Shown here piece by piece: positions 2,102 to 58,750 of a stretch of DNA of 64,000 nt; within the stretch, counting starts at the first letter, position 1; each line of letters opens with the position of its first letter. The stretch is from Alphaproteobacteria bacterium. Lineage in GTDB: Bacteria; Pseudomonadota; Alphaproteobacteria; UBA11073. The notes under the pieces are model-generated. The model saw nothing but the letters and a program-made list of their open reading frames with translations. It searched no databases and was not told the origin of the DNA. Location of the stretch: assembly GCA_965246755.1 (NCBI GenBank), contig OZ251979.1:1566642-1630641 (forward strand), given 5' to 3'. The position numbers and the translations under genes are program-made.

Positions 2102-2539
2102 ATGGGAAATTTTGACATCACGGCAGTAGGATCTGCCACGACTCCATTTGCGGCCAACAAGGTCAGCACGCGTTTTGAACAGGCGGCCCAACCTCTCGAA
2201 ACGCCAAAACAGAATATAAACGCTCTTTCGCCGGGCCAAGCGGTTTATTTCTCGCCCGCTTTTAAATACGATGCTGAAGCGCAAGTGGTTATTTATGTGC
2301 AGCGCAACATTGAAACCGGCAATGTCATCAATCAATATCCATCCAAAAAAGTTGTCGAGCAATACCGGCAAACTGCGCAGGAAGGCAAAAAAACGGCCGC
2401 CCCGTTAAATTCAACAGTGATTGTACCAGCTGCGCCAAAAACGACTACGACAGCTAAAACGCTTCCTGTAGCACCTGTCCCAACAAGCACTGCAACCGCG
2501 CCGCAAGATGTCGTCGCGCCAGTACAAAGTGATGTTTAA
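2102..2539 (+). CDS. FlaG-like flagellar protein
   Basis: 145-aa ORF divergent from fliF; segment AEAQVVIYVQRNIETGNVINQYPSKKVVEQY fits the FlaG family pattern (D..G..VV.V.D..TGEVIRQIP.EEVL); Pro/Thr/Ala-rich C-terminal tail. Confidence 0.45.
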   Translation: MGNFDITAVGSATTPFAANKVSTRFEQAAQPLETPKQNINALSPGQAVYFSPAFKYDAEAQVVIYVQRNIETGNVINQYPSKKVVEQYRQTAQEGKKTAAPLNSTVIVPAAPKTTTTAKTLPVAPVPTSTATAPQDVVAPVQSDV

Positions 2540-2583
2540 CATCACATAAATTTTCTTTGAAATCTTGGCAGGCTGACTTCCGC

Positions 2584-4686
2584 TTAGGCGCTGGTATTAA
2601 CGCGGTTGCCGACCAGTGAAATCAAATCACTGCTGGAGCCGCTGCCATCCAAGATACTGGAATAAATAGAGGTTTTGGTATTGGTGCCATCCGCATCAGA
2701 GGCGGCCAGAAAACGTTTGATAAACTGGTCGACAAACTTGGGGTCTTTGAGCTTTTTAATGTCAAGATGACGCGAGAAAACCGCTTCTTGGGTTTCAATC
2801 GGCTGTTTGGCCATGCTGGTCGGCAATTGGAATACCTTGGCCACTACATCATGCAGGGCCTTGTCACCCATCAGATTATACATGTTGGTGATCGCGCCAG
2901 CATGTTTTTTAAAATAAACCGCGTAACGCAAAGCATTATTTTCATCACCCAAAGCGACTTCATACTGACTGGATCGATAATTTTTCTTTAACGTATCCAA
3001 AAAGGACATGGTGGTGGTGTTTTTAGCGTCCGCCGCCAAAGTGCTGGAGGGGCGATAAGTGGTCGTGCCAGCCTGGCCACTGTCGGTAAAATAACCAGTT
3101 TTATCGATAGCTTCCAGCAAAGCCGCCGGCTTCTCAAAGCTGGCGTTGGCAAGCTGATAAAGATTAATCTTTTTGGTTCCACTGCCATCCGCTTTGTTAT
3201 ATGTGGCACTGACAATACCGTTTTTATCGATATCGACGCTGGTGCGCTGGCCCAGTGCAATACTATCCATGGCAATCGGCTTAATCGCGTAATTGCCGCC
3301 GGCACGGCTGGTCATACCTGAAAAATCAATGCTGAGCGTTGACGGCCCGTAGCCGCGCTGCCAGTCAACCGCGACGCTGGCACTTTGCACGCTGTCGCCT
3401 GTTTTAATTTCAATCTTATTGGTATCCGTATTATAAGTGCCGGCGATTTTGACAGTGCCATCATTATTAAACTGAACATCAAGCGTACCGCCCAGCGTAT
3501 TCAAATCATCATTGTAGACCTTGACCTGCCAACGATTGGTACCAGCATCAACCTTGTTATATTCCAATCTCACGTTGCGTTTTAAACCGGTTTGATCATA
3601 AACGCCGGTCGTTTGCGAGAAATCAGCATGGTGCGCGAGCGATTTTAAATCAAATGCCTCTGTTGTGGTGCCGCCGGACCAGGTAAGGCTGGACGACAGG
3701 CTGGTTTTGCTGTCGCCATATATGGTGCTTAACTCACCATCGCTGCCAAACCCCAACGCATGAGTTCCAGATGTCAGCACGTTATTGCTACTGTCGGTGA
3801 CTGTAAAGCTCCACTGGTTGGTACTGCTGTCCGCACGGTTCAGCTTGACTTGAATAACCTGAGTGGCGCCGCTGGGATCCTTGACCGTTTGCGCCACACT
3901 GTAGGAATTGATGTTGGCAACTGGCTGGTCGCTATTTAAAATTGTTTGCGGTATCAGCGTTTGCGTGGGGGTAAATTTATTGTCAAACCAATTGACTTGG
4001 ACCGGTTTTATTTCCGCAGTTTGATATCCTTTTACCGCATTTGCTGCCGGCTGCAGCTGGCCGCGATTGTCCAGTTTCATGCCCATGGCATAAAATTTAT
4101 CCGCTGCCTGCAATTTACCATCCGCACCGACGGTTACCGACGCATTATTGCTGAACAAAGTTTTGATGGCGTCGCCGGTTGCTGTCTGTGACTGTACTTC
4201 AAAATAACGGTTGCCAATGGATTGCAACTTGAATTCATCCTTGCTGGTCGCGGTCTGCAGATTGGTCAGCCCGACATTAAAGATGTTCAAGTCTTTGGCC
4301 ATTTTGGCAAAGCGGCTGTCAGCCAGCTTGTTAACAAGTGAAGCCTTTAGGTTAGGGTCCTCCTTAAAAACTTTAGCTAAAATACCGGTTTTATTGGCTT
4401 CGGATTGCAAACCATAAGCGGTTAGCACATAGCCCACCAGCCGGCGGTCTTTTAAAAAATCATCGACAGATTTAATGGTTTTGATGGTTTTGTCGAAATA
4501 ATCCTGCTCACGTTTGATTTGCGGCGCGGCGGCAACTGTGGCCAGTTCTTTGGTATCGCCATTTTTTTGCAAAATGCCATAGGCGGCCTGCGCGGATAAA
4601 TCGCCTAAACCAGCCAAACCCGGTATGATGATCGAATTGATCGATGTCATCGCAATACAGTGACCTTTCTCGTCTGGCCGATGCAA
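2584..4686 (-). CDS. Flagellar-cluster protein with two DUF1217 domains (N- and C-terminal) flanking a ~400-aa FlgE-like (hook D1/D2-like) core; alternative start at 4650 (MTSINSII)
   Basis: N-terminal DYFDKTIKTIKSVDDFLKDRRLVGYVLTAYGL and C-terminal MGDKALHDVVAKVFQLP...DPKFVDQFIKRFL resemble DUF1217; internal SVDIDKNGIVSATYNKADGSGTKKINLYQLANASF is clearly homologous to the adjacent FlgE (GVEIDKDGIVSATFSNGTFAKLYKIPLATF). Confidence 0.7.
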   Translation of the reverse strand: MHRPDEKGHCIAMTSINSIIIPGLAGLGDLSAQAAYGILQKNGDTKELATVAAAPQIKREQDYFDKTIKTIKSVDDFLKDRRLVGYVLTAYGLQSEANKTGILAKVFKEDPNLKASLVNKLADSRFAKMAKDLNIFNVGLTNLQTATSKDEFKLQSIGNRYFEVQSQTATGDAIKTLFSNNASVTVGADGKLQAADKFYAMGMKLDNRGQLQPAANAVKGYQTAEIKPVQVNWFDNKFTPTQTLIPQTILNSDQPVANINSYSVAQTVKDPSGATQVIQVKLNRADSSTNQWSFTVTDSSNNVLTSGTHALGFGSDGELSTIYGDSKTSLSSSLTWSGGTTTEAFDLKSLAHHADFSQTTGVYDQTGLKRNVRLEYNKVDAGTNRWQVKVYNDDLNTLGGTLDVQFNNDGTVKIAGTYNTDTNKIEIKTGDSVQSASVAVDWQRGYGPSTLSIDFSGMTSRAGGNYAIKPIAMDSIALGQRTSVDIDKNGIVSATYNKADGSGTKKINLYQLANASFEKPAALLEAIDKTGYFTDSGQAGTTTYRPSSTLAADAKNTTTMSFLDTLKKNYRSSQYEVALGDENNALRYAVYFKKHAGAITNMYNLMGDKALHDVVAKVFQLPTSMAKQPIETQEAVFSRHLDIKKLKDPKFVDQFIKRFLAASDADGTNTKTSIYSSILDGSGSSSDLISLVGNRVNTSA

Positions 4687-4761
4687 AACTTTACATCGTC
4701 ACCTGCCTTCTGGCAGATGTTAATACTCTTAATATTATGCCTGAAAAAGCTTGCGGAAGTC

Positions 4762-5154
4762 TTACGATGCGACCGCGGCGGGTTCGGCAACGCGGCTTTT
4801 CGGTTTCAATCCTTCAATAATATGCTTGTTAACATCAATCAAACCATCCAAGGCGATGGTCTCGCTGTTAAGAATCCGAAATGTTTCCCGGTCTACCCAA
4901 TGCGACAAATCAATCAACTGCGTTTTAAGGACTAGCGGCAGGCCATTGTCAGGATTGGATAAATCCAGACGAAACACCGCCCATACCTCCCGGTTCCAGC
5001 AAACCGTATCAACTCGCTTGGCAACATCAGTTGGCGCGGCTTCCGCATCCATCAGCGCTGCCGTAACCTGGCCTAACAAGCGATATTCAACATCACGGCC
5101 GGAACCGGGACTAGCTTCCAGATTTTGGGTTTTGGTGTAAGCGTTATAAGACAT
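4762..5154 (-). CDS. flaF: Flagellar biosynthesis regulator FlaF
   Basis: 130-aa ORF MSYNAYTKTQNLEASPGSGRDVEYRLLGQVTAALMDA..., typical FlaF N-terminus, size and position next to flgE. Confidence 0.7.
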   Translation of the reverse strand: MSYNAYTKTQNLEASPGSGRDVEYRLLGQVTAALMDAEAAPTDVAKRVDTVCWNREVWAVFRLDLSNPDNGLPLVLKTQLIDLSHWVDRETFRILNSETIALDGLIDVNKHIIEGLKPKSRVAEPAAVAS

Positions 5155-5244
5155 GAGAGTTCTTCCCTGTGTATGTGTCAGCTTTTGATTTTAACGTCAA
5201 AATTTTAACAAATTATGAACGTTTATAAAAGCGGCTTTACTGCT

Positions 5245-5271
5245 GAAAAAAAGCCCCGCGTTCTGCGGGGC
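5245..5271 (-). terminator. Rho-independent terminator downstream of flgE
   Basis: GC hairpin gccccgcgttctgcggggc followed on the minus strand by a T-run (A7 on the plus strand at 5245-5252). Confidence 0.6.
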
Positions 5272-5307
5272 TGAGTTTGGTGGGTGGGAAAGAAACCGTC
5301 TGGTTAA

Positions 5308-6585
5308 TTAACGGATTTGCAACAGCGCATCGAGCATTTGGTCGGCGGTGGTAATTACCTTGGTACCAGCTGAATAAGCGCGCTGTGTTACAATCATGTT
5401 CGCAAATTCATCGGCCAGATCGACGTTGGAAGTTTCCAGCGAGGTTGGCGCGATCTGCCCTGCCCCGGCTTGGCCGGCTTCGCGCAGATTATAGTCGCCA
5501 CTGGCAGAGGTGACGCTATAGGCGTTACCGGATTGCTCTTCTAGGCCGTTTGGCGCGGTAAAGGTTGCCAACGGTATCTTGTATAATTTGGCAAAGGTAC
5601 CGTTACTAAAGGTTGCCGACACTATACCGTCTTTGTCGATTTCAACCCCGGTTCTAAGCCCTAAGGCCGCACCATCCTGAGTGATGCTGGTAACATTATA
5701 AGACGCTTGATATTGGGTGACTGCCGACAGGTCCAAGTCGATCGCTTGCGTGCTTGAGCCATTACCCCAGTTAATACCGGTAATGTTAATGTCGGTTGTA
5801 GTGGCGCTACCCGCGATCGCGTTCAATTTACCATTACCATCGAATGACAATACTTTCGGCGTGCCTAAACTGGCACCAGCGGCATTGGTCACATTCAACA
5901 GCCACTGGTTCGGCCCAGTCGTGCCCGCATTATTGACATTGGTGTGGGAAAACTTCAGCGTTATAGTCTGCGCGGCGCCGAGCGAGTCAAAGACCGTAAT
6001 CTGGCGTGAAAAGCTGGCTGGAGTCGCAGTAGCTGGCGTTGCCACTGTTTGCAAGACATCATCCGATTTTAAGTTTAGCGCAACGTTAGCATTGTTGGTG
6101 GCCTTGGTCTGACCGCCCAGGAATGAGACGTTGACCGGCTCAAGGCTGCTTAAGTTGGCGTTGGCGGACGGAATATTGCCGGCATTGTCCAGCGGCCAGC
6201 CATACAGCACCATGCCCGCCGTGTTGCGCAACAAGCCATTATTATCTTCCTGAAATGAACCGGCGCGTGTGTACAAAAACGGCTCATCATCAGTCGCATT
6301 CTGGCGCACCACGATAAAGCCTTCGCCGGAAATTGCGAGGTCGGTTGCCGACGCGGTTTGTTGCAAGACGCCTTGGGCATCAACTGATGATTTAGTATTC
6401 GCCAAGACACCACCTGGTGAATAAGCGCCGCCGCTGGCTGAGGTGACCAGTGAACTGAAATCAGTGTTGACCTTTTTATAACCAATCGTCCCGACATTCG
6501 CGATGTTATTGGAAATGGTTGACATTTTTTGACTTTGCGCGCTAAGCGCGGAAACCCCAGTAAATAATGCGCCGAATAATGACAT
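5308..6585 (-). CDS. flgE: Flagellar hook protein FlgE
   Basis: MSLFGALFTGVSALSAQSQKMSTISNNIANVGTIGYK N-terminal rod/hook motif; C-terminal NMIVTQRAYSAGTKVITTADQMLDALLQIR. Confidence 0.9.
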   Translation of the reverse strand: MSLFGALFTGVSALSAQSQKMSTISNNIANVGTIGYKKVNTDFSSLVTSASGGAYSPGGVLANTKSSVDAQGVLQQTASATDLAISGEGFIVVRQNATDDEPFLYTRAGSFQEDNNGLLRNTAGMVLYGWPLDNAGNIPSANANLSSLEPVNVSFLGGQTKATNNANVALNLKSDDVLQTVATPATATPASFSRQITVFDSLGAAQTITLKFSHTNVNNAGTTGPNQWLLNVTNAAGASLGTPKVLSFDGNGKLNAIAGSATTTDINITGINWGNGSSTQAIDLDLSAVTQYQASYNVTSITQDGAALGLRTGVEIDKDGIVSATFSNGTFAKLYKIPLATFTAPNGLEEQSGNAYSVTSASGDYNLREAGQAGAGQIAPTSLETSNVDLADEFANMIVTQRAYSAGTKVITTADQMLDALLQIR

Positions 6586-6630
6586 GGTATGCTCTCCCGT
6601 AGTGTTTTGTGTTGGTGGTTCGATTGCGTG

Positions 6631-7302
6631 TTAAACGTTGCTGCCTGGTAAACTGGCTGAAAGGATTTTGGTCAAATCGGTTGGGATTTTGCCTAACATT
6701 AACTGCAAAGTGCCATCAGCGGCGTTCTGCACGCCGGTTACGCGATTGGTGACATAGGTCGTGGCAGCAACGGAACTGCCGTCTGCTGCCAATGATCCGA
6801 CCGATAGATGATATTGTCCCGCTTTAACAGCATTACCGTCATTATCGGTGCCGTCCCACACCGCAGTGTGACTGCCGATGGCGGTATCGCCATTGAGCGT
6901 TTTAACCAGGTTACCTTTATCATCGATGATGCCGATTTGCGTTTTGTTGGCGGTGCCAGCCAAGCTGTAGTCAATGTTGTAATTACCGCTGGCTGCATAG
7001 TTGAAATCATTGCCCGCCGTTTTAACATCGAGCCCGATATAGCTGAGCGCCGCCTGGGTCTGGATATTGCCTTGCAGGTTGACAAGGTTGGTCAGCTTGT
7101 CATTCATTTTGATCTGCTGTTCAACCTGGCTGTATTGCACCAGCTGCTGGGTAAACTGATTGGTATCGGTCGGCGCCAAAGGATCCTGGTTTTTCAATTG
7201 CGTGGTGAGCAATTTTAAAAACGTGTCGAAGTTGCCCGATAAAGATGTGGCATCTTTTTTAGTGGCGGTTGCTGACAGTGCAGCGTTGATTGCGTCAACC
7301 AT
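6631..7302 (-). CDS. flgD: Flagellar hook assembly/capping protein FlgD
   Basis: FDTFLKLLTTQLKNQDPLAPTDTNQFTQQLVQYSQVEQ motif; C-terminal FlgD Ig-like region with HTAVWDGTDNDGNAVKAGQY. Confidence 0.85.
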   Translation of the reverse strand: MVDAINAALSATATKKDATSLSGNFDTFLKLLTTQLKNQDPLAPTDTNQFTQQLVQYSQVEQQIKMNDKLTNLVNLQGNIQTQAALSYIGLDVKTAGNDFNYAASGNYNIDYSLAGTANKTQIGIIDDKGNLVKTLNGDTAIGSHTAVWDGTDNDGNAVKAGQYHLSVGSLAADGSSVAATTYVTNRVTGVQNAADGTLQLMLGKIPTDLTKILSASLPGSNV

Positions 7303-10656: not shown

Positions 10657-10739
10657 AAATGAATTGCTTTGCCATAGGCTGACAGCACGCTTTCGTGCAG
10701 CATTTCGGATAGGGTTGGATGCGGGAAGATGGTGTGCAT
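10657..10739. repeat. Direct repeat copy 1: orphan duplicate of the last 28 codons of lpdA, with the adjacent hairpin terminator aaattcatttagaaatgaatt
   Basis: 81/84 nt identical to 11428-11511; encodes MHTIFPHPTLSEMLHESVLSAYGKAIHF, identical to the LpdA C-terminus; all 3 differences are synonymous. Confidence 0.85.
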
Positions 10740-11086
10740 TATATTTTTTCCTGTTGGCGTGCTTTAGCCAATTGCTGTTGCTGCAGCATAAATTCACGCA
10801 ATACAGCATTCATACGCGATTGGTAACCGCGGCCAAATGATTTAAACCAAGTTACTACATCATTATCAAAACGGATGGTTAGTTGGTTTTTGCGTTCTTG
10901 AAAGCTTTGCATCTTTGTAGCCAGATCTTCTAGGCCATGCACAGCAACGCTATTTTCCCAGTCAATTTCATAAGGCAAAACATCATCCTCATCAGCCAAG
11001 ATTTCAGCTTCGGTCACGGCAACACGCGACCAATCGGTCTTACCCTTTAATTTTTTTAAATCTTCGATAGTGTGAGATTTCAGCAT
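10739..11086 (-). CDS. brnA: BrnA-type antitoxin (DUF4415 N-terminal region plus ribbon-helix-helix C-terminus)
   Basis: KGKTDWSRVAVTEAEILADEDDVLP and TIRFDNDVVTWFKSFGRGYQSRMNAVLREFM match BrnA; overlaps the upstream toxin gene. Confidence 0.7.
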   Translation of the reverse strand: MLKSHTIEDLKKLKGKTDWSRVAVTEAEILADEDDVLPYEIDWENSVAVHGLEDLATKMQSFQERKNQLTIRFDNDVVTWFKSFGRGYQSRMNAVLREFMLQQQQLAKARQQEKI

Positions 11087-11315
11087 CCCTTGCTCTCCTC
11101 ATCGAAATAATGCGAATGACGGACACGCGCATCGTGATAATAACTGAAATGAACCGATTGTCTAAAAGACCGGTAGCAACAAAACGTAACTCTTCATTTC
11201 TATGGGTAGGCAGTAAAATCGGTTTATTTTCAAAAAATCTTGCAACATCTTCAAAATCCAATCCATGCTTGGCTAAATTTGACAGCTGCTTCTCTTCATC
11301 CCATTCAAATTGCAT
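11040..11315 (-). CDS. brnT: BrnT-type toxin (DUF497, RelE-fold ribonuclease)
   Basis: MQFEWDEEKQLSNLAKHGLDFEDVARFF is the hallmark BrnT N-terminus; ~90 aa. Confidence 0.8.
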   Translation of the reverse strand: MQFEWDEEKQLSNLAKHGLDFEDVARFFENKPILLPTHRNEELRFVATGLLDNRFISVIITMRVSVIRIISMRRARDAEISHYRRFKKIKG

Positions 11316-13071: not shown

Positions 13072-14345
13072 TACAGCAATAATCCAATTGGGTTTTCAAT
13101 AAAATCTTTAAATGCCGCGATAAACTCCGCGCCGACTGCGCCATCAACCACACGGTGATCGACGGATAATGTAACCGTCATCACAGTCGCGATTTCCAAC
13201 TTGTCATTTTTAACGATGGCACGTTTTTCACCTGCGCCAACCGCCAGAATGCAGCCCTGCGGCGGATTGATGATCGCCGCAAATTGTTTGATGCCGAACA
13301 TACCGAGGTTAGAGATGGTAAAGGTGCCGCCCTGGAATTCCTCCGGCTTTAGTTTGTTCTCACGCGCGCGCAGGCCGAGGTCTTTCATTTCTTTCGAAAT
13401 GTCCGTTAGCGATTTGCCTTCCGCTTTTTTGATGATGGGTGTCACCAGGCCGTTCGGCGTCGCGACCGCGACCGAAACATCGGCATGTTTAAACTTTAAT
13501 ATCGCGTCTTCCGTCCAGGCGGCGTTAGCGGCAGGAATTTTGATCAGTGCCGCGGCAACTGCTTTGATTACCATGTCATTGACAGAAATCTTGGCAATAG
13601 TCTGCGCAGCATTATATTGCGCGCGAATATCCAGCAATTTATCAATTTCGCAATCCACCGTCAGGTAGAAATGCGGCACATTTTGTTTGGACTCGGTCAG
13701 ACGCTTAGCGATAATTTTTCGGATCTGACTGTTTGGTTCCGCCACATAGTCCATGCCCAGCATATCGGCCAATTGTCTGGCGTTAGGGCCCGACATAGTT
13801 GGCGCATTCACTTTAGCTGACGCTACGGCGCGGTCAGCTTGTCCCTTTGGAGCAGACTCGACATCCGCCACAACGATGCGGCCATGCGGGCCGGTGCCTT
13901 TAATAGTGGCGAGGGTAACACCTTTTTCAGCCGCTATACGTTTGGCGAGTGGCGACGCGAAGACACGGGCACCAGATGAAAGTTGGAGATTAGAAATTGG
14001 AGACTGGACAGGCGCAGATTGAACGGCCGGTGACGGTGCGTTGTTGGTGGCAATTGGTGTTTCGGTTTTTTTATCCGACGTCCCGCTTCTGACTTCCATC
14101 TCACCCTCTTCCAGCAAGATGGCGATGGGCGTATTGACGGCAACACCCTCACTCCCTTCGGCAATCAGGATTTTACCGATCCTGCCCTCATCCACGGCTT
14201 CAACTTCCATGGTTGCCTTGTCAGTTTCAATTTCAGCGATGACCTGGCCGCTTTTAACAGTGTCGCCTTCTTTCACTGTCCATTTGGACAATTTGCCCTC
14301 GGTCATGGTGGGCGACAGCGCTGGCATTAAAATTTCAATACTCAT
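13071..14345 (-). CDS. pdhC: Pyruvate dehydrogenase E2 dihydrolipoamide acetyltransferase
   Basis: N-terminal lipoyl domain ([17 protein letters not shown]), E3-binding domain, catalytic domain with DHRVVDGA. Confidence 0.9.
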
Positions 14346-15184
14346 GCGAATACTTCTTTAGATGGATGTTGCGTTGATAGATAAAGACGTGGCCGTAAAA
14401 ACCAATACAAGATTGAAAATAATATTGAATTAATAAGGCAAATTAAAAAACACAATTTACCTACTTTCTGAGCGTATATAGTTAGATGTTGTAAGGTGTC
14501 AAAATTGGTAGGCAATATGAAGAAAAAATTATAAGAAATAGATGATGCAATTAGTGATGATGCACATGACGTAATTAAGAAAGACAATAAATTTGGTTTG
14601 CAAATTCTGTGGATCAAATTCCAAACAATAAAAACAACGAAAGGTACGGTTATAAAATTAGCTAATAATCCAAACGATGGCTCTACGGATCCTCCCAAAA
14701 ATTTTTCTTCAAAATTAATACATAAAAAAAGTAAAATCACATTGAATAAGCCATATACTACCAATCCAAATTCAACCAAAAAACAATAAGCTAAAATTCC
14801 AAGTTTTTTCTGTTTGAAAAAAAGCTTTCCAAACACAATTGTTGCAGGAATCAAAAACAGAAAATCAAAGGCGTAACCAATCGGCGTGCTTTGCTGACCA
14901 CCGACCGCACCAACCGCAATTATTGGCATAAAAAATAGTACGAGGATGGCCCAACCGATTAAACGGTTTTGTTTCTCTATAAAGTTGTTCCCACGTTTTA
15001 AAATTTTCCAAATTATGTTCATGATTAATGGAAATATCAAAAGCGGGATTAAAATAAAATACCCAAAAAAAAGTCCTGAATATACAAATAATGTTGATCC
15101 GCCACCCATTAATGCGACAAACAAAGAATACAGAGACACATAGATAGCTTCATTTTTCTGCAAAAGATTAAATTTAATAAGCAT
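14342..15184 (-). CDS. Hypothetical polytopic membrane protein (AT-rich) inserted between pdhB and pdhC
   Basis: 280-aa ORF, ~8 predicted hydrophobic helices, Phe/Leu/Ile-rich; GC far below flanks; overlaps pdhB stop (TAATG) and pdhC start (ATGA). Confidence 0.55.
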
Positions 15185-27028: not shown

Positions 27029-27718
27029 ATGCCCGTTTACACATTATTCATCCTTGCTTGCATCATTTTACCCTATCTGATTGGTTCTATACCATTTGGA
27101 CTGATCCTGACCCGCGCCGCAGGCCTGGGCGATGTGCGTAAGATCGGCTCCGGCAATATTGGCGCAACCAACGTGCTGCGCACTGGGCGTAAGGACTTAG
27201 CGATTGCGACATTATTATGCGACGCGGCGAAGGGTGCGCTGGTCATTATCGCTTATCGCTATTTTATCGAACACAAGGTTATGCCGCAGATGGATTATTA
27301 TATGGGCATCACCTTTGGTGGCACACCTGCGCAAAAAGAACTTGTACAATGGTTGCCCTATGTGCCGCTGCTGGCGGGCGGCATGGTCATCATCGGCCAT
27401 ATGTTTTCCATTTGGCTGCGCTTTAAAGGCGGCAAGGGCGTTGCCACCTCGCTCGGCGTCATCACGGCGGTCAGCTGGCCGGTGGGAGTGGCAGCTTTTG
27501 GTACCTGGTTGCTGGTTGCTTTTGTCAGCCGTTATTCATCCCTGTCAGCAATGGCCGCCGCCGCCGCCGCGCCAATCTATGCCTGGTATTTTACCGACCA
27601 CGTAACCGCCCTTGCCTTTCTGGGTATTGCACTGCTCGTAATCACGAGGCATTACAAAAATATCAGAAATTTGCTGCAAGGCGCTGAAGCAAAAATTAAA
27701 TTAAAAAATTCCGTTTAG
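27029..27718 (+). CDS. plsY: Glycerol-3-phosphate acyltransferase PlsY
   Basis: GSIPFGL...GSGNIGATNVLR...KGGKGVAT motifs. Confidence 0.85.
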   Translation: MPVYTLFILACIILPYLIGSIPFGLILTRAAGLGDVRKIGSGNIGATNVLRTGRKDLAIATLLCDAAKGALVIIAYRYFIEHKVMPQMDYYMGITFGGTPAQKELVQWLPYVPLLAGGMVIIGHMFSIWLRFKGGKGVATSLGVITAVSWPVGVAAFGTWLLVAFVSRYSSLSAMAAAAAAPIYAWYFTDHVTALAFLGIALLVITRHYKNIRNLLQGAEAKIKLKNSV

Positions 27719-27996
27719 GGTTCGGATTTTGAACTCGTATTAAATTTTCTGATCATATTAACGTTGGTTTTTTTAGGTTTCATAATTATATCGTTTCCAG
27801 ACAAAACCTTAGTAAAAGAAGCTCTGTTTAATGGTGCGGTTATATTGTCATAGCTTGAATTATTGGATTTATGTAAAGAGTATACAGCAGCAGCAATAGG
27901 AGGAATACCAATAACAACTCCAATAAAAAATCCAGATACGATATGTGGAGCTATTTTTTTATTAGACATGTAGTTTTTCATAACATAAAATAGCAT
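27715..27996 (-). CDS. Hypothetical small single-TM protein (AT-rich)
   Basis: 93-aa ORF in a low-GC patch between plsY and dprA; one hydrophobic helix. Confidence 0.3.
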   Translation of the reverse strand: MLFYVMKNYMSNKKIAPHIVSGFFIGVVIGIPPIAAAVYSLHKSNNSSYDNITAPLNRASFTKVLSGNDIIMKPKKTNVNMIRKFNTSSKSEP

Positions 27997-28083: not shown

Positions 28084-29250
28084 TTGGGGGGCCTCATGCC
28101 GGTTACACCAGACACATATATAATAAGTGAGGCCGAGCGGCTGGCCTGGTTGCGCCTGTCGCGCAGTGAAAATGTCGGCCCCATCACCTTTAACCGCCTG
28201 CTGCGGCAATTCGGCTCTGCCGTCCGGGCGCTGGACGCCATCCCTGACCTGGCCCGCCGCGGCGGGCGCCTGCAAAAACTGAAGATCCAAAGTGAGGCGG
28301 ATGGCCGCGCGGAAATCCAGGCCCTTACCAAACTGGGGGCCCGGCACCTGTTATCCTGTGATGCCGCTTACCCCGCCATCCTGCGCCATTTGGAAGATGC
28401 GCCGCCGGTTTTGACGGTGAAGGGCAATCCGGCGCTGCTCGAAAAACCGATGGTCAGCATCGTGGGCGCGCGGAATGCCTCGCTGCCCGGCCGGCGCATG
28501 GCGGAAATTCTAGCCGCAGAATTGGGCCAAGCCGGCTATACTATCGTCTCCGGTCTCGCGCGCGGGATTGATACCGCCGCGCATGGCGCTAGCCTTACCG
28601 ACGGTACAGTGGCCGTGGTCGCGGGCGGTATTGATATTGTTTATCCGGCGGAAAACCAAACCCTGTATGACAAGATTTGCGCGCAAGGTATTGTAATTGC
28701 GGAAAATCCGCCAGGGGTGCCGCCCACCAACCGTGACTTTCCCCGCCGCAACCGCATCATCTCCGGCCTCGCCCTCGGCACCGTCATTGTCGAGGCTGCG
28801 CTGAAATCCGGCTCGCTCATCACCGCGCGTTATGCGCTGGAGCAAGGGCGCGAAGTGTTTGCCATCCCCGGCTCGCCCCTTGATCCGCGCGCCGGCGGTA
28901 CCAATAAATTAATCAAGGATGGCGCAACCCTGGTGGAAAGCGCCGCCGACATTATAAATGTGTTGCGAAATATGCAGGAACCAACCGCCCTTGCCGAGCC
29001 GTGGCAAACCTACCGCAATGCGCCGCTGCAATATGATGATAATGCCGTGGCGGTCGCACGGCGGCGCACGCTGACCGATTTGCTATCCTTCACCCCCGTA
29101 ACGCTGGATGAAATCCTGCGCACGGGCGAGGTCAATCCGGCGGCGCTCCACACTGCCCTGCTCGAACTTGAACTCGCCGGGCGCGCCCAGCGCCTGTCCG
29201 GCAACCGCGTTATTTTGGCGACTGATGATACAGAAATGAAGGCAATGTAA
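28084..29250 (+). CDS. dprA: DNA processing protein DprA (Smf)
   Basis: Rossmann-like DprA core IVSGLARGIDTAAHGASL..., C-terminal winged-helix region. Confidence 0.85.
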   Translation: MGGLMPVTPDTYIISEAERLAWLRLSRSENVGPITFNRLLRQFGSAVRALDAIPDLARRGGRLQKLKIQSEADGRAEIQALTKLGARHLLSCDAAYPAILRHLEDAPPVLTVKGNPALLEKPMVSIVGARNASLPGRRMAEILAAELGQAGYTIVSGLARGIDTAAHGASLTDGTVAVVAGGIDIVYPAENQTLYDKICAQGIVIAENPPGVPPTNRDFPRRNRIISGLALGTVIVEAALKSGSLITARYALEQGREVFAIPGSPLDPRAGGTNKLIKDGATLVESAADIINVLRNMQEPTALAEPWQTYRNAPLQYDDNAVAVARRRTLTDLLSFTPVTLDEILRTGEVNPAALHTALLELELAGRAQRLSGNRVILATDDTEMKAM

Positions 29251-31904
29251 TGGCACAAGATAACCTCGTCATCGTCGAAAGTCCGGCCAAAGCTAAAACC
29301 ATCGAAAAATATCTGGGGCCGGATTATAAAGTCCTCGCCAGTTTCGGGCATATCCGCGATCTGCTGCCCAAAGATGGCGCGGTGCGCCCCGATGAAGACT
29401 TCGCGATGGATTGGGTGCTGGGCGACCGTGCTCATAAAAATGTCAAAGAGATTGAACGCGCCGTTAAAACCTCTAAAACATTATATCTTGCGACCGACCC
29501 GGACCGCGAGGGCGAGGCCATTTCCTGGCATGTCAAAGAATATCTGGATGAAAAGAATTTATTAAAAGGCCGCACTATTCATCGCGTCACTTTTAACGAA
29601 ATTACCAAAAGCGCGATTCAGACTGCGTTTAAGCAGCCGCGGGAAATCAATGCCGAGCTGGTTGAAGCTTATCTGGCGCGCCGCGCGCTGGATTTTTTAG
29701 TCGGCTTTAACCTGTCGCCGATTTTGTGGCGCAAATTGCCGGGCGCACGGTCGGCGGGGCGGGTGCAGTCGGTCGCGCTGCGCCTCATCTGCGAACGTGA
29801 ATTTGAAATTGAACAGTTTAAGCCCCAAGAATATTGGTCAGTTGAAGCGCTGTTTCAAACGAATAGCGGCGCCACTTTTACCGCGCGGCTAACGCATTTT
29901 GACGGCCAAAAACTGGACAAATTTGCCATCAATAACGAAACGCGCGCGCAAGAGATTCTAGCCGCATTGCAAAAACAAAATTTTACCGTCAGCGATGTGA
30001 CGAAGAAAGAAGTCAAACGTCATCCGGCCGCGCCATTTATTACCTCAAGCTTGCAGATGGAAGCGTCACGCAAACTCGGTTTCGGCGCTAGCCAAACCAT
30101 GCGCACCGCGCAAAAACTTTATGAAGGCGTGACGCTGGGCGGCGAAACGGTCGGACTTATCACCTATATGCGGACTGATGGCGTGCAATTGTCCCAAGAT
30201 GCAATCTACTCCTGCCGCACGACGATTGATAAATTGTACGGCCAGGATTATTTGCCGGAACAACCACGCATCTATTCATCAAAAGCCAAAAACGCGCAGG
30301 AAGCGCATGAGGCAATTCGCCCCACCGATCTCGCGCGTACGCCTGATTACGTCGCCAAATATGTCGATCATGATCAGGCGCGGTTGTATGAATTGATCTG
30401 GAAACGCACGTTGGCCGCGCAGATGGCTAGCGCGGTTCTGGACCAGGCTACCGTCGATATTACCGGCACGAACAAGGCGGCGTTCCGCGCCACCGGTTCG
30501 GTGGTGAAATTCGACGGGTTTTTTAAACTCTATTTTGAAGATACTGACGATATGCCGTCTGACAGTGAGGATAATCGCCGCTTGCCGCCGCTGACTGTCA
30601 AAGACGCGTTGCAGACGAACAGCATTAAACCCGAACAGCATTTCACGCAGCCGCCGCCACGTTTCAGCGAGGCGTCGCTGGTCAAGGCCTTGGAAGAGCT
30701 TGGCATCGGCCGCCCTTCTACCTATGCCTCGATCATCCAGGTGTTGCAGGACCGCAATTATGTGCGGCTCGATAAAAAGCGTTTTGTGCCCGAAGATCGC
30801 GGGCGGATTGTCACAACCTTCCTTACCAATTTTTTCCGCCGTTATGTGGAATATGATTTTACCGCCGCGCTTGAAGGCCAGCTGGATGAAATTTCCGCCG
30901 GCGCGTTGGATTGGAAAGACATGCTGCGCAAATTCTGGGTCGAATTTATCGGCGCGGTCGATGAAACCAAACCACTTACCATCACGCAGGTGATTGATGT
31001 GCTGGATGCGGAGCTGGATAAGTTTTTATTTCCGCCGCGCGCAGATGGCAGTGATCCGCGCAAATGTCCGCGTGATAGTGGTCGCCTTGGTTTAAAGCTC
31101 GGTAAATTCGGCGCCTTTGTCGGCTGCTCGAATTATCCGGAGTGCAAAGAAACGCGGCCATTGGGTCTCGCCGAAAGCGCCGCCGCTGCCAACGGCGGCG
31201 GTGTGTTTGAACCGCGTGAAATCGGCATTGATCCTGACAGTGGTGAAGTTATCACCATCAAGCTTGGCCCCTATGGCCCTTATCTCGAACGGCCTAATGG
31301 TGACAACAAGCCCAAACGCGCGTCGTTGACGCCCGGCACCAACCTGGATGCCATTACGCTGGAAGATGCCGTCAAATTATTATTGCTGCCGCGCGAGGTG
31401 GGGATTTTCCCCGAAACCGGCGATCCGATTTACGCCAACGTCGGCCGGTTCGGGCCCTATATTCAAACCGGTAAATTGCTGGCGTCATTGCCCAAGGGTG
31501 AAACGGCGCAGGATATCGGCCCCAACCGCGCGGTGGATATTTTGATGGAGAAAATTGCGCGCAGCCTGCCGGTTAAAGAATTGGATAATCATCCAGACGA
31601 TGATGCGCCAATCGGCATTTATCGTAGCCGGTTTGGTTTTGTCATTCGTCATAATGATATCGAGGCGCGCCTTGCCAAAGGCACCGACCCACAAGACATC
31701 GACAGTGCCACCGCCATTTTGTTATTAAAGCAGATGGGCAAACCGGCGTTCAAATTTGGCAAGAAAAAGGGCAAAGGTAAAACCACCGCGCCAAAGAAAA
31801 CAGCTGTTAAAAAAACCGCCGTGAAAAAGACAGCTGCCAAAAAAACTGCCGCTAAAAAATCTGCGGTAAAAAAGACCGCCGCTAAGCAAGTTACGGCAAA
31901 ATAA
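29250..31904 (+). CDS. topA: DNA topoisomerase I with C-terminal Lys-rich (VKKTA)n tail
   Basis: TOPRIM N-terminus (LVIVESPAKAKTIEKYLG), catalytic Tyr region, C-terminal Zn-ribbon-like repeats, terminal KKTAVKKTAVKKTAAKKTAAKKSAVKKTAAK. Confidence 0.9.
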   Translation: MAQDNLVIVESPAKAKTIEKYLGPDYKVLASFGHIRDLLPKDGAVRPDEDFAMDWVLGDRAHKNVKEIERAVKTSKTLYLATDPDREGEAISWHVKEYLDEKNLLKGRTIHRVTFNEITKSAIQTAFKQPREINAELVEAYLARRALDFLVGFNLSPILWRKLPGARSAGRVQSVALRLICEREFEIEQFKPQEYWSVEALFQTNSGATFTARLTHFDGQKLDKFAINNETRAQEILAALQKQNFTVSDVTKKEVKRHPAAPFITSSLQMEASRKLGFGASQTMRTAQKLYEGVTLGGETVGLITYMRTDGVQLSQDAIYSCRTTIDKLYGQDYLPEQPRIYSSKAKNAQEAHEAIRPTDLARTPDYVAKYVDHDQARLYELIWKRTLAAQMASAVLDQATVDITGTNKAAFRATGSVVKFDGFFKLYFEDTDDMPSDSEDNRRLPPLTVKDALQTNSIKPEQHFTQPPPRFSEASLVKALEELGIGRPSTYASIIQVLQDRNYVRLDKKRFVPEDRGRIVTTFLTNFFRRYVEYDFTAALEGQLDEISAGALDWKDMLRKFWVEFIGAVDETKPLTITQVIDVLDAELDKFLFPPRADGSDPRKCPRDSGRLGLKLGKFGAFVGCSNYPECKETRPLGLAESAAAANGGGVFEPREIGIDPDSGEVITIKLGPYGPYLERPNGDNKPKRASLTPGTNLDAITLEDAVKLLLLPREVGIFPETGDPIYANVGRFGPYIQTGKLLASLPKGETAQDIGPNRAVDILMEKIARSLPVKELDNHPDDDAPIGIYRSRFGFVIRHNDIEARLAKGTDPQDIDSATAILLLKQMGKPAFKFGKKKGKGKTTAPKKTAVKKTAVKKTAAKKTAAKKSAVKKTAAKQVTAK
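31791..31885 (+). repeat. 15-bp tandem repeat (~6 units) encoding the (V/A)KKTA pentapeptide tail of TopA
   Basis: Units gttaaaaaaaccgcc / gtgaaaaagacagct / gccaaaaaaactgcc / gctaaaaaatctgcg / gtaaaaaagaccgcc. Confidence 0.8.
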
Positions 31905-31940
31905 GATGACAAACTTTGCCGAATGGGTTAAACTTTATTT

Positions 31941-32213
31941 ATGAAAATGGAGCTTAACCTGCCTGACAATTTACCGCCACCGCTGGTTAATCATATCGGC
32001 CAATTGCTTGACCGTATTCAAGATGATCCGTCGTTTGCCGAAGATATTTGGTTACACGATGATGCACCGGATAATTTTGTTATGACGCCGGAAATTCGCA
32101 CCAAAATTGAAGAGGGTTTGGCTGATATTGCTGTAGGACGTATTTTGACCTCTGAACAAGTTGATAAAAATTTGGCCGAATATCGGGCACAATGGCTAGC
32201 TCAGAACAATTAA
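31941..32213 (+). CDS. Putative antitoxin paired with the downstream ParE-like toxin
   Basis: 90-aa acidic protein; overlaps the toxin gene by 22 nt; C-terminal TPEIRTKIEEGLADIAVGRILTSEQV resembles addiction-module antidote proteins. Confidence 0.5.
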   Translation: MKMELNLPDNLPPPLVNHIGQLLDRIQDDPSFAEDIWLHDDAPDNFVMTPEIRTKIEEGLADIAVGRILTSEQVDKNLAEYRAQWLAQNN

Positions 32214-32524
32214 AGGTTATATATTCTGAAAGTGCCCAAAAAGATTTAAAGGAAATCTGGCGTTGGAATGCTAAAACTTATTGTTTAAATCATGCTGATA
32301 AATATATCGAACAGTTAAAGACAAAAATCTGTATTTTAGAATCGGACCCCCATCGTGGCACTGCAATAATTGAATATCAGGATTTACGGGGCCTGCTGAT
32401 TAAAAAACGTAACAGTAAACATGGGCATATGGCCTTTTATAAAATCAATCAAAGCACAATTTATATAGCGCGCATTCTACATACTGCAATGAATTGGCAA
32501 ATTCATCTAGATGGCAATGCATGA
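32192..32524 (+). CDS. parE: ParE/RelE-family type II toxin
   Basis: 110 aa; SAQKDLKEIWRW..., C-terminal HGHMAFYKINQSTIYIARILHTAMN matches the ParE H.I.YR....I.I.RILH..MD signature. Confidence 0.75.
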   Translation: MASSEQLKVIYSESAQKDLKEIWRWNAKTYCLNHADKYIEQLKTKICILESDPHRGTAIIEYQDLRGLLIKKRNSKHGHMAFYKINQSTIYIARILHTAMNWQIHLDGNA

Positions 32525-34473
32525 AACACACTAAACACCGCAAAGCTAAATCAAGCCCACCCAAAAGCGTCCAACACAAAAACGTGGCGCGAAAATTTGC
32601 CGCCGGTAAAATCAAACCGCAGGCGGCAGCAACGCGTCCCGCGATTGAGTCTGGTTTTGTCATGGGCATCGCCAAACGCCAGGGCAAAACATTTTTAATC
32701 GAAAGTGTTAGCAAGCGCGACCATAACAGCTATCAGCTCGCCGATGGTAAAAAACACGGCATCAACGATGGTGACCTGGTCAAAGTCAAACTTGACCCAC
32801 GCAGTAAGGAACACAAACTAAAACGCGTCGAATTTGTCGAGAATTTTGGTGATATCAACAATGCCGGTACCTTTAGCCTGATTGCCATCCATTCCCTTAG
32901 CATCCCGCATGAATTTCCGGAAGAGGCTTTGGCACAAGCCGCGCAAGGTGCGGTGCCGTCGCTGGGCGCGCGTGAAGATCTCCGCAACATATCGCTCGTC
33001 ACCATCGACGGTGCAGATGCGCGCGACTTCGACGATGCGGTCTTTGCCGAGCCCGACGGCAATGGCTGGCATCTGATTGTCGCGATTGCCGATGTGTCTT
33101 ATTATGTGCGGTCGGGCAATGCGCTGGACCAGGAGGCGTTTAACCGTGGCAATTCCGTCTATTTCCCCGACCGCGTCGTGCCGATGTTGCCGGAAGCGCT
33201 GTCCAATGACCTATGTTCACTGCGACCCAACGAACCGCGTGCGGCGATGGCCGTGCATCTATGGATTAATGCCAATGGAAATTTACAAAAACATAAATTC
33301 ACGCGTGCCCTGATCCGTTCGCATGCCCGGCTGACCTATGAACAGGTGCAGGAGGCACGCGACAGCAATGCCGACAAAACCACCACGGCGCTGATGGATA
33401 AAGTTATCAATCCATTATACAGCGCTTATCAGGCTTTGCTGAAGGCACGGCTTAAACGCGGTACGCTTGACCTCGATGTGCCGGAACGCAAAGTACAGCT
33501 GGGTGATGATGGCAAGGTTATTGCCATTGTGCCGCGCACGCGGCTCGACAGTCACCGGCTAATCGAAGAGTTTATGGTGTTGGCGAATGTCGCGGCGGCG
33601 ATGGAGCTTATCAAACATAAATCACCCTGTATCTTCCGCATCCATGACCATCCCGACGTCACCAAGCTGGATATTGCGCGCCAGGTGTTGAGCAGTATGG
33701 GATTGGAATTGGCGAAGGGCAATAAACTCGCGCCGAAAGATTTTACCAAACTGCTGGACGAAACGCGCGGGCGTGAGGATGCGCATGTCGTGCATCAACT
33801 GATTTTACGCAGCCAAAGCCAGGCGATCTACAGCCCCAACAACATCGGTCACTTTGGCCTCGCGCTGGAACGCTATGCGCATTTCACGTCGCCCATCCGC
33901 CGCTATGCGGATTTGATTGTACATCGCAGCCTGATCCGCGCGCTGGATTTGGGTGATGGTGGTCTTACGGATTATGAAGCCAAACAGGTCGATAAAATCG
34001 CCGAACATATTTCGGTCACCGAACGCCGCGCGGTCGAGGCCGAACGCCAGACCATGGATCGCTATACAGCTTCTTTTTTGGAAAATGAAGTCGGCGCGGT
34101 TTTCAACGCGCGTATTTCATCGGTCACACGCTTCGGTTTGTTTGTCACGCTAGACGACACCGGCGCAGATGGCATCATCCCCATGCGCAATTTGGGCGGT
34201 GATTATTTTACGCATGACGAGCCGCGCCAACAACTGGTCGGCCAACGCACCAAATATGTTTACAAGCTGGGGCAGCGTCTGACGGTAAGATTGCTGGAAG
34301 CCAATGTCTTGACCGGCGGCCTGGCGTTTGAGCCGGTCCAGCAAGTTTTGGAGCAGCCTGCCCCAAAAACAGCTGCAAAATCTTCTGCCGCCAAGCCGAC
34401 TGCCACCAGCCGCAGTTTTAAACAGCGTCCGGGCAGTGCCGCCCCGCAAAAACCTCGTCAACGTCGCCGCTAA
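32521..34473 (+). CDS. rnr: Ribonuclease R; start set at the ATG overlapping the parE stop (ATGA)
   Basis: RNB catalytic domain (FFPDRVVPMLPEALSNDLCSLRP, HFGLALERYAHFTSPIRRYADL), C-terminal S1 domain and basic tail. Confidence 0.85.
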   Translation: MKHTKHRKAKSSPPKSVQHKNVARKFAAGKIKPQAAATRPAIESGFVMGIAKRQGKTFLIESVSKRDHNSYQLADGKKHGINDGDLVKVKLDPRSKEHKLKRVEFVENFGDINNAGTFSLIAIHSLSIPHEFPEEALAQAAQGAVPSLGAREDLRNISLVTIDGADARDFDDAVFAEPDGNGWHLIVAIADVSYYVRSGNALDQEAFNRGNSVYFPDRVVPMLPEALSNDLCSLRPNEPRAAMAVHLWINANGNLQKHKFTRALIRSHARLTYEQVQEARDSNADKTTTALMDKVINPLYSAYQALLKARLKRGTLDLDVPERKVQLGDDGKVIAIVPRTRLDSHRLIEEFMVLANVAAAMELIKHKSPCIFRIHDHPDVTKLDIARQVLSSMGLELAKGNKLAPKDFTKLLDETRGREDAHVVHQLILRSQSQAIYSPNNIGHFGLALERYAHFTSPIRRYADLIVHRSLIRALDLGDGGLTDYEAKQVDKIAEHISVTERRAVEAERQTMDRYTASFLENEVGAVFNARISSVTRFGLFVTLDDTGADGIIPMRNLGGDYFTHDEPRQQLVGQRTKYVYKLGQRLTVRLLEANVLTGGLAFEPVQQVLEQPAPKTAAKSSAAKPTATSRSFKQRPGSAAPQKPRQRRR

Positions 34474-36924: not shown

Positions 36925-37437
36925 TTATGATTCTGGTGCAGGCGTAGATGAGGGTATTGGTGATGATGTTTGAGTAACAGCATCACTTCCCTGCAAAATG
37001 TTAACAGCATTAAAGTCAGTTGCAGTACGCCTAAATGGGTTAGGAGTACTTTTTACGCGGGCCGCCTTTAACTCGGTAAATTTTTCGTACCTATATTCTT
37101 CCCAAGATAAACCGTCATCGTTAATTGCGGCAACTAATTTGTTAACATCTTTTAAATTACTAACGCGAGACAGTGTATCTGTTAAGTAATTAACTTTTGG
37201 CTCAATTAGTAAATCTGGAATTATTTTCACGCGGTGTGCTAGCTCTTGAACTGCATCCACAAGACCATCTTCATTGATCTGTTTATCTAGGCCCATGTCG
37301 AGTTCACGAACAATATTCAATATGGTGCTAATAAGACCAAGAGTTGGCGATTTTGTTCTAAATGCACGACTTGCCCATGACCCGCTTTGAAATTCTCCGT
37401 AAGCTTTTAAGTTTTCATTTTCAAAATCAAAAGACAT
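36925..37437 (-). CDS. Hypothetical protein (AT-rich)
   Basis: 170-aa ORF in a low-GC patch between cysQ and prfB; no family recognised. Confidence 0.4.
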   Translation of the reverse strand: MSFDFENENLKAYGEFQSGSWASRAFRTKSPTLGLISTILNIVRELDMGLDKQINEDGLVDAVQELAHRVKIIPDLLIEPKVNYLTDTLSRVSNLKDVNKLVAAINDDGLSWEEYRYEKFTELKAARVKSTPNPFRRTATDFNAVNILQGSDAVTQTSSPIPSSTPAPES

Positions 37438-46400: not shown

Positions 46401-46799
46401 ATGATTAACTTAATAGATAAATCTAGGGAGATACAAATGAACCGGAGAGACCAGCTATTAAATGTTATTGGCATAATAGAAGATTATTTGAATTCTTTTG
46501 AATTTTGGGTGACCCGTGACGAAGACCTTACTTTGTTACTTAAGGCTGATAAGTGTTTTGAAAGCTTTCCCCGTCAAGAACAGGCTATTTTTAAAAAATT
46601 TGGTATTAATGTAACAGTAGAAGGAACTTTGTTGCGGTTGGATACGACGCAAGAAAATTTGAAAAGTAATCTTAGTAAGATGGTTTCTTATCGAGGAGGT
46701 TTTAATTGGGGACGCGTAAAAACTTTGCCAGAACCGCGACGAAATGATGCGCGTGTGTTTAGAAATGCTAGCCAATGGGGTGGCTGGGTTGGCCCTTAA
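46401..46799 (+). CDS. Hypothetical protein (AT-rich)
   Basis: 132-aa ORF in a low-GC patch; no family recognised. Confidence 0.3.
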   Translation: MINLIDKSREIQMNRRDQLLNVIGIIEDYLNSFEFWVTRDEDLTLLLKADKCFESFPRQEQAIFKKFGINVTVEGTLLRLDTTQENLKSNLSKMVSYRGGFNWGRVKTLPEPRRNDARVFRNASQWGGWVGP

Positions 46800-58270: not shown

Positions 58271-58750
58271 TTAAGCAGCAAGGCTGAGAGTCAAATCAGC
58301 ATTACGTTTTTGATACCGTAGTCGCTGTAAAGTATTTTGACTTTTGCCAGCCACCCCAAATGCTTCTAAAAGCTGCAAACGTACAGCAGGCAAACCCGCG
58401 CTTTCACTAGCTTCAGAAATAACGCCAACAATTTCATCCTTAGACATATCTTGTTTTGCGAACACACTGGCAAACATATGTTTATCAAAATCATCACAAT
58501 CCTCATAATAATGTTTGCACAATTCACCAAAAAACAGGGTGAGCGCTTTCATATCATCCGTGCAAAAAGCAGGAGTGATTACCACACGCTGTAAACTTTG
58601 CAGATATATGGATCCGTCAATGTTAAGATCGCCTATTAATCTACGCGCGTGTTTAATATCGCGCTCTTCCAGATTCTGCAGCCATCGCTCGGCCAGCATA
58701 CTATTTAATTTATCAGATGGTACAAAATCCCTAATTTTACTGGTGGTCAC
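58271..58750 (-). CDS. Hypothetical protein (AT-rich)
   Basis: 159-aa ORF in a low-GC patch; no family recognised. Confidence 0.4.
   Translation of the reverse strand: MTTSKIRDFVPSDKLNSMLAERWLQNLEERDIKHARRLIGDLNIDGSIYLQSLQRVVITPAFCTDDMKALTLFFGELCKHYYEDCDDFDKHMFASVFAKQDMSKDEIVGVISEASESAGLPAVRLQLLEAFGVAGKSQNTLQRLRYQKRNADLTLSLAA

Follow-up and report, generated by a model that had tools for sequence, protein, structure and literature searches.

The locus described here, a two-gene toxin-antitoxin cassette lying between topA (topoisomerase I) and rnr (RNase R) in a 64,000-nucleotide stretch of an alphaproteobacterial genome (contig OZ251979.1 of assembly GCA_965246755.1, positions 1,566,642 to 1,630,641, forward strand; the whole of this stretch is called the window), has its closest documented parallel in Caulobacter crescentus, where higBA was inserted recently in front of the conserved gene higX, so that higX now lies under the cassette promoter (PMC13384398). 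Both alphaproteobacteria carry a cassette just upstream of a conserved host gene. The two loci differ, however, in that higBA-higX has a 42-bp spacer, a HigB/HigA pair and experimental proof, whereas the present one has a 4-nt overlap, a ParE-type toxin and RNase R as the downstream product, and is known from sequence alone. In Escherichia coli, the chromosomal type II cassette of relA-mazE-mazF-mazG is likewise flanked by housekeeping or stress genes, the downstream one of which is co-transcribed with it; mazG has been reported to modulate the mazEF system. The toxin there, MazF, is of a different family, and our analysis gives no sign of an action of RNase R on the cassette. A further comparison is offered by paaR-paaA-parE and the toxin-antitoxin-chaperone modules, whose third gene encodes a regulator or chaperone dedicated to the cassette and moving with it. 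These share with our locus three tightly packed cistrons with the toxin-antitoxin pair first. In contrast to them, rnr follows topA without any cassette in two relatives (loci L004 and L007), and relatives of the cassette precede unrelated genes. A connection of another sort was described in Pseudomonas syringae Lz4W, where the psA-psT cassette encodes a toxin of the RelE/ParE family and a ribbon-helix-helix (RHH) antitoxin, and overexpression of the antitoxin rescued the cold sensitivity of an rnr mutant (PMC11375266). Unlike the arrangement reported here, that link to RNase R is indirect, by way of plasmid copy number, and the cassette is plasmid-borne and does not lie beside rnr (PMC11375266).

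At the level of the individual proteins, the nearest described system is ParD1-ParE1 of C. crescentus (structure 3kxe, with ParE1 also in 8c24). The window toxin is of the same size as ParE1 and aligns with it over nearly its full length, including the ...R[IV]LH..MN... C-terminus, and in both systems the antitoxin gene comes first and the genes overlap. The identity between the toxins is nevertheless low, the single sequence reaching an E-value of about 1e-5 only, and no Pfam antitoxin family, ParD_antitoxin included, is matched by the window antitoxin. It shares with RelB (9g12_C) and Rv2865 (3g5o_A) of Mycobacterium tuberculosis a C-terminal neutralising segment of the form TP..a.I.EGLADi.aGR...e.v. 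RelB and Rv2865 have a Phd/YefM-type N-terminal domain and RelE-like partners. The similarity to them is limited to the C-terminal half, whereas the N-terminus of the window protein looks RHH-like and its partner ParE-like.

We consider it probable that a type II toxin-antitoxin cassette with a ParE-type toxin was acquired by horizontal transfer and landed in the very short spacer between topA and rnr, where it is now the upstream portion of the unit from which rnr is transcribed. The genes concerned are as follows.

28084-29250, plus strand: dprA; its stop codon shares one base with the topA start (open reading frame table)
29250-31904, plus strand: topA, topoisomerase I, 884 aa (Pfam Topoisom_bac, Toprim, Zn_ribbon_Top1 and Toprim_C_rpt; open reading frame table)
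31941-32213, plus strand: antitoxin gene, 90 aa, isoelectric point (pI) 4.28 (17 Asp plus Glu against 7 Lys plus Arg)
32192-32524, plus strand: ParE-family toxin gene, 110 aa, pI 9.27 (PF05016)
32521-34473, plus strand: rnr, RNase R, 650 aa, short form CSD2-RNB-S1 (TIGR02063; Pfam CSD2, RNB and S1)

These five genes run head to tail on one strand and are separated in turn by a 1-nt overlap, a 36-nt gap, a 22-nt overlap (32192-32213) and a 4-nt overlap. The last of these is the tetranucleotide ATGA at 32521-32524, in which the ATG at 32521 opens the 650-aa RNase R frame and the TGA at 32522-32524 closes the toxin frame. An earlier note on this DNA had described an acidic 90-aa open reading frame (ORF) overlapping the 110-aa ORF by 22 nt, and an rnr ATG overlapping the toxin stop codon; the coordinates and pI agree with the first description and the second can be read directly in the sequence. 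Exactly these products of 90, 110 and 650 aa are present in a public protein collection, each as the sole member of its cluster, which for the antitoxin and the toxin is a cluster at 90% identity.

The same note had taken the cassette to be inserted between topA and rnr and had proposed that the topA-rnr junctions of relatives be compared, and both composition and this comparison favour an insertion. The GC content of the cassette is 38.4% (34.8% for the toxin gene, with 29% at third codon positions) against 52% for topA, 54% for rnr and 50.3% for the window, and only 2.5% of segments of equal length are as GC-poor. The codon-usage score of the toxin gene is 0.23 compared with 0.41 +/- 0.12 for the genes of the window, about 1.6 standard deviations lower. 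In relatives topA and rnr stand next to each other, with 8 nt between them in L004 and 27 nt in L007, and because of this tight ancestral spacing it is supported that the cassette was inserted, in the same orientation, into a compact dprA-topA-rnr array. In other relatives the topA-rnr gap holds other cargo (L001 and L003: ADP-ribosylglycohydrolase; peptidase C26 plus DUF1508). No direct repeats flank the cassette as a target-site duplication would. An 8-nt inverted pair, ATGACAAA/TTTGTCAT (at 31906 and 32656), was considered as an insertion scar and rejected; with 13 such pairs in 1.1 kb, it was put down to chance. L002 was also set aside as a topA-rnr junction, its upstream ORF being a second RNB protein; this locus, from a Micavibrio metagenome-assembled genome (MAG), contains at 2221-6803 two tandem genes for RNB-domain exoribonucleases of 760 and 744 aa. 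In L007, from the alphaproteobacterial MAG GCA_031291435.1, the dprA-topA-rnr array is interrupted at another point, with an unrelated RelB/YafQ cassette at 1560-2091 separating dprA from topA. This hints that insertions may land repeatedly in the spacers of this array.

Assignment of the 110-aa protein as a ParE-type toxin, also made in the earlier note, is supported by its match to PF05016 (ParE_toxin) with 51.7 bits against a cut-off of 23 (E 1.4e-13), residues 9-102 aligning with positions 1-89 of the 89 in the profile, and by the closest solved structures found with the single sequence, C. crescentus ParE1 in 3kxe (E 1.9e-5) and ParE1 in 8c24. The profile search that had been proposed as a check thus gave a match over the full model. 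The C-terminal string on which the first assignment was based, HGHMAFYKINQSTIYIARILHTAMN, is present as toxin residues 77-101, although it is not the literal end of the protein, as the nine residues WQIHLDGNA follow it. An alignment of the toxin subfamily (A2), made up of the window toxin and four partner toxins reached through the antitoxin family (29-38% identity), has 13 invariant residues, and the window toxin has all 13. A word-indexed homologue search with the toxin returned only the toxin itself, and an AlphaFold2 model of the toxin alone, made from the single sequence, was discarded (pLDDT 37.8).

For the upstream ORF the situation is different in kind. Scans with antitoxin families, which had also been proposed, gave nothing for the 90-aa protein: no family of Pfam or NCBIfam matched at E up to 1 (ParD PF03693, RHH_1, RelB PF04221, PhdYeFM and Unstab_antitox among them), and a PADLOC scan for defence families gave no match for the cassette. 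The view that it is an antitoxin, taken at first from the gene layout, is nonetheless supported by a conserved pairing with ParE genes, by similarity of its tail to those of RelB and Rv2865, and by the opposite charges of the two products. We regard gene order as the decisive evidence. An exhaustive HMMER scan of 1.84 billion representative proteins found only 24 relatives, mostly of 86-95 aa, and many of these align end to end. Four independent contexts were examined (L008/L009, L010-L012, L013/L014 and L015/L016), and in all four a relative of the antitoxin lies directly upstream of a ParE_toxin gene of 108-114 aa, which it overlaps by 22, 31, 25 and 31 nt. The flanking genes are unrelated from one context to another, being NAD synthase in L008/L009, fliW-csrA in L010-L012, plasmid-like RepA and TraG in L013/L014, and plasmid-like TrwC in L015/L016. 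In four of the five pairs, that of the window included, the toxin ATG is laid over the codon for an invariant Trp of the antitoxin. These observations point to a conserved, mobile two-gene module whose antitoxin family is absent from the curated libraries. In the plasmid-like relatives a small third ORF is located 3' of the toxin gene (L013 3087-3278, 63 aa; L015 3108-3314, 68 aa); that of L013 overlaps the toxin stop by 4 nt, and the two show no relationship to one another or to the rnr tail.

The alignment of the antitoxin family (A1) begins with a strand-like segment, M[RK][LF]E[LI]x[IV]PD, followed by helices, and passes through an acidic linker to a conserved C-terminal segment, TPE...I..(G)LAD[IV].AG...T.E.V...L...R..W. 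In a second subgroup the head (MHQVNLNDQLYQDVQRRAAEAGF..VDDYV) has the look of a classic RHH. The family-conserved residues P50, G66 and W85 are all kept in the window antitoxin. When the family profile was compared with PDB chains, it matched residues 40-86 of M. tuberculosis RelB 9g12_C (E 3.5e-5) and residues 61-93 of Rv2865 3g5o_A (E 0.0094), while RHH proteins were matched weakly only (CopG 6xrw, E 0.33; MazE6, E 0.63). One of the 24 relatives has a weak FitA-like RHH match of its own (E 0.0036). The AlphaFold2 model of the antitoxin, of moderate confidence (pLDDT 71.7), is mostly helical, with helices at 13-28, 30-35, 50-64 and 71-89 and residues 1-12 unstructured, and Foldseek searches with this model gave no match better than E = 2. 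On these comparisons the N-terminal third looks RHH-like, and the C-terminal half, with the pattern TPE...EGLADIAxGR...W, is predicted to be the part that binds the toxin.

Several possible signals for expression lie in and around the cassette.

31894-31921, plus strand: hairpin formed by the inverted repeat CGGCAAA-N14-TTTGCCG, spanning the topA stop codon (RNA fold)
31906-31934, plus strand: promoter-like hexamers ATGACA-17-TAAACT in the 36-nt topA-antitoxin spacer (consensus scan, 9/12)
31926-31959, no strand assigned: imperfect palindrome with its midpoint at the antitoxin start codon, 12/15 per arm around a 4-nt ATGA
32416-32445, plus strand: promoter-like hexamers TAAACA-18-TAAAAT towards the 3' end of the toxin gene, some 75 nt before the rnr ATG (consensus scan, 9/12)
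32521-32661, plus strand: Lys/Arg-rich N-terminal tail of RNase R, 47 codons, with 46 aa before the conserved core, pI 11.8

RNA from 31880-31960 is predicted to fold with -19.6 kcal/mol (z = -3.2, better than 200 of 200 shuffles), and the second hairpin of this fold is the palindrome at 31926-31959. The hairpin at the topA stop is not a canonical terminator, as no T-run directly follows it, and a scan of the plus strand from topA to rnr found no terminator. Palindromes of the quality of that at 31926-31959 number only 10 in the window, and 4.7% of shuffles of the 620-nt region hold one. It is a candidate for the antitoxin operator, or for an RNA hairpin with the AUG in its loop. The hexamers at 31906-31934 would place the 5' end of a transcript close to the antitoxin ATG, leaving it almost or entirely leaderless. 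Promoter-like sites are, however, present in the region scanned at background frequency, with four found against 2.6 expected, and are not significant on their own. Pairing of Shine-Dalgarno type is weak at most of the starts tested, and its absence before rnr is therefore uninformative. At the toxin/rnr junction and at the antitoxin/toxin overlap, RNA folding is no better than in shuffled sequence (z = 0.12 and -0.26, respectively), and an Rfam scan of the window found two tRNAs only, neither of them at the cassette locus.

A course of events of the following kind can be pictured from homology and from what is general for such families. The acidic 90-aa antitoxin would dimerise through its RHH-like N-terminus and repress its own promoter by binding to the palindrome over its start codon, while its C-terminal helices would wrap around the basic 110-aa toxin. 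Loss of the labile antitoxin would free the toxin, which by homology would be toxic as a gyrase poison. Since rnr is preceded by neither a terminator nor a spacer, it is likely to be co-transcribed with the cassette; a topA/antitoxin/toxin/rnr message would end with it, and the autoregulated promoter of the cassette would contribute to its transcription. Ribosomes terminating on the toxin frame might then restart at the overlapping rnr ATG, so that translation of rnr would be coupled to that of the toxin. The earlier note put the coupling of RNase R expression to the toxin-antitoxin operon as something that may occur, and that degree of caution is appropriate.

It is possible, if rather doubtful, that the cassette is real and its link with rnr purely physical, with rnr served by its own promoter within the AT-rich toxin gene or starting at GTG 32584, and with the ATGA having no regulatory meaning. 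The four-base ATGA is the commonest overlap between bacterial genes, which counts in favour of this explanation. The hexamers at 32416-32445 could be an independent rnr promoter, yet the frequency of such sites here is that of the background, and read-through from upstream should still reach rnr when no terminator precedes it. In C. crescentus, translational reporters indicated that higBA and the downstream higX are largely independently regulated (PMC13384398). Much depends on the start codon of rnr, for which TTG 32494, ATG 32521 and GTG 32584 are the remaining candidates; ATG 32662 was rejected as unlikely, as a start there would remove part of the conserved first strand of CSD2. The coding score is 0.39 for 32584-32661 and 0.08 for 32521-32583, though the latter is still the best of the three frames, and this difference speaks for the GTG as a possible alternative start. 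Against this, the public annotation starts rnr at 32521, and this start gives the protein the kind of N-terminus found in other short forms of the enzyme. Nineteen short alphaproteobacterial RNase R proteins (612-639 aa) form one clade in a rough neighbour-joining tree, and with few exceptions their sequences open with M[KR] and continue as a basic tail of 23-56 aa. Annotation and homologous tails together make ATG 32521 the probable start, as the earlier note had held, although this choice is unproven, given the poor coding statistics of 32521-32583 and the GTG alternative.

A second alternative, which we consider unlikely, concerns the toxin, which may be a ribosome-dependent mRNA endonuclease of the RelE type rather than a gyrase poison. 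PF05016 holds both mRNA-cleaving toxins and gyrase inhibitors, and E. coli RelE, YoeB and YafQ are included in it (PMC11980606). Since the family is functionally mixed, a gyrase target is proposed solely from the nearest neighbours of the toxin. The sole NCBIfam match of the toxin is RelE_StbE, at 22.9 bits and so below the cut-off of 27.9, and the antitoxin tail resembles those of RelB and Rv2865, whose partners are RelE-like. The structures nearest to the toxin nevertheless point the other way. The A2 profile matched 8c24 and 3kxe, both at 4e-10, and then 7r5a, 7ycs, 6x0a and 5ceg, so that the single sequence and the subfamily profile match ParE-labelled structures, and neither of them matched a characterised RelE, YoeB, HigB or YafQ chain in PDB at E up to 1. 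The profile also matches 7etr (E 0.0015), which its depositors labelled 'RelE/StbE family'. In addition, the C-terminus of the toxin, ...IARILHTAMNWQIHL, aligns with ...IIRVLHQSMNARAHL of C. crescentus ParE1. A gyrase poison is accordingly the function that the nearest neighbours suggest.

It might also be asked whether the insertion removed the 5' part of rnr, encoding the helix-turn-helix (HTH) and CSD1 domains, and thereby created a short gene with a new start. We think this improbable. The rnr product matches TIGR02063 with 655.7 bits (cut-off 597.85) only from model position 139 of 711, with CSD2, RNB and S1 present and a 46-aa Lys/Arg-rich tail in place of HTH and CSD1, while its homologues are mostly of 720-780 aa, and in the rough neighbour-joining tree it is placed outside the clade of 19 short forms. 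All of this could be expected of a truncated gene. The short clade, however, is also without HTH and CSD1, so that short RNase R proteins with an MK-basic tail exist without any cassette, and one of them is encoded in L007 27 nt after topA. The window protein shares with this clade the entry into CSD2, 'ES..[IV]xG..K.G'. No leftover of an RNase R HTH or CSD1 was found anywhere in the window, the tail has a host-like GC content of 51%, and it has no residual similarity to the N-termini of long forms (z = 1.2). A Rickettsiales RNase R (L003) has a basic tail together with CSD1.

That the cassette has lost its function and is merely decaying as an inactive remnant seems more improbable still. Erosion is the fate of many chromosomal toxin-antitoxin loci (PMC13617665), and each of the two proteins stands alone in its cluster, but both frames are intact, the 22-nt overlap typical of the family is kept, and the residues conserved in the toxin subfamily and in the antitoxin family are all present. 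We give very little weight, finally, to the idea of a domesticated cassette that controls the dprA-topA-rnr operon, with RNase R dependent on the autoregulated promoter and on ribosomes finishing the toxin frame, although, if it were true, loss of the antitoxin under stress would raise RNase R together with the toxin, and a gyrase poison directly after topA would tie supercoiling homeostasis to RNA decay; nothing here shows RNase R to be a component of a toxin-antitoxin system.

The reading we prefer, a foreign ParE-type cassette inserted upstream of rnr and transcribed with it, has a number of points weighing against it. The closest RNase R among 5.8 billion proteins is 57% identical, and a scan of a genome collection with RNase R gave four loci only, at 47-53% identity, so that there is no near relative by which the insertion could be dated or its presence and absence followed. 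The antitoxin has no match to any curated family, and its RHH fold is hinted at by little beyond the weak CopG and FitA-like matches, Foldseek having found nothing. The mixed functions within PF05016 leave the gyrase target to the nearest neighbours, the site at 32416-32445 could be a promoter within the toxin gene, and the first 21 codons of rnr have weak coding statistics, with GTG 32584 a possible alternative.

As a toxin-antitoxin locus this one is ordinary, and its place is slightly unusual. The one new detail is an antitoxin family not found in Pfam, NCBIfam or PADLOC, which seems to join an RHH-like head to a neutralising tail of the RelB/Rv2865 type and which is always paired with one ParE subfamily. 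Recognition of this family should be useful for annotation and for the study of how antitoxin modules are exchanged. The insertion has also left a housekeeping gene, rnr, without an upstream spacer of its own, and because of this its expression must pass through foreign DNA. The locus may in this respect serve as a natural test case for the rewiring of a host gene by insertion, comparable to higBA-higX in Caulobacter.

Some further features of the neighbourhood can be noted. The 3' end of topA contains five 15-nt tandem units (31779-31881) that encode a lysine-rich tail (KKTAVKKTAAKK...), and this tail gives a weak Pfam match to the histone H1-like HC2 (E 0.0057). The window also contains a second low-GC toxin-antitoxin pair, on the minus strand at 10739-11315 (GC 37-41% against 50% for the window), in which a BrnT toxin gene at 11040-11315 (PF04365, 78.9 bits) overlaps by 47 nt a BrnA antitoxin gene at 10739-11086 (PF14384, 60.9 bits). 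ORFs of low GC (30-41%) that have no Pfam match are found at 14342-15184, 27715-27996, 36925-37437, 46401-46799 and 58271-58750, and these may be other foreign islands. The second of them, of 93 aa, is a near upstream neighbour of dprA and is encoded on the other strand.

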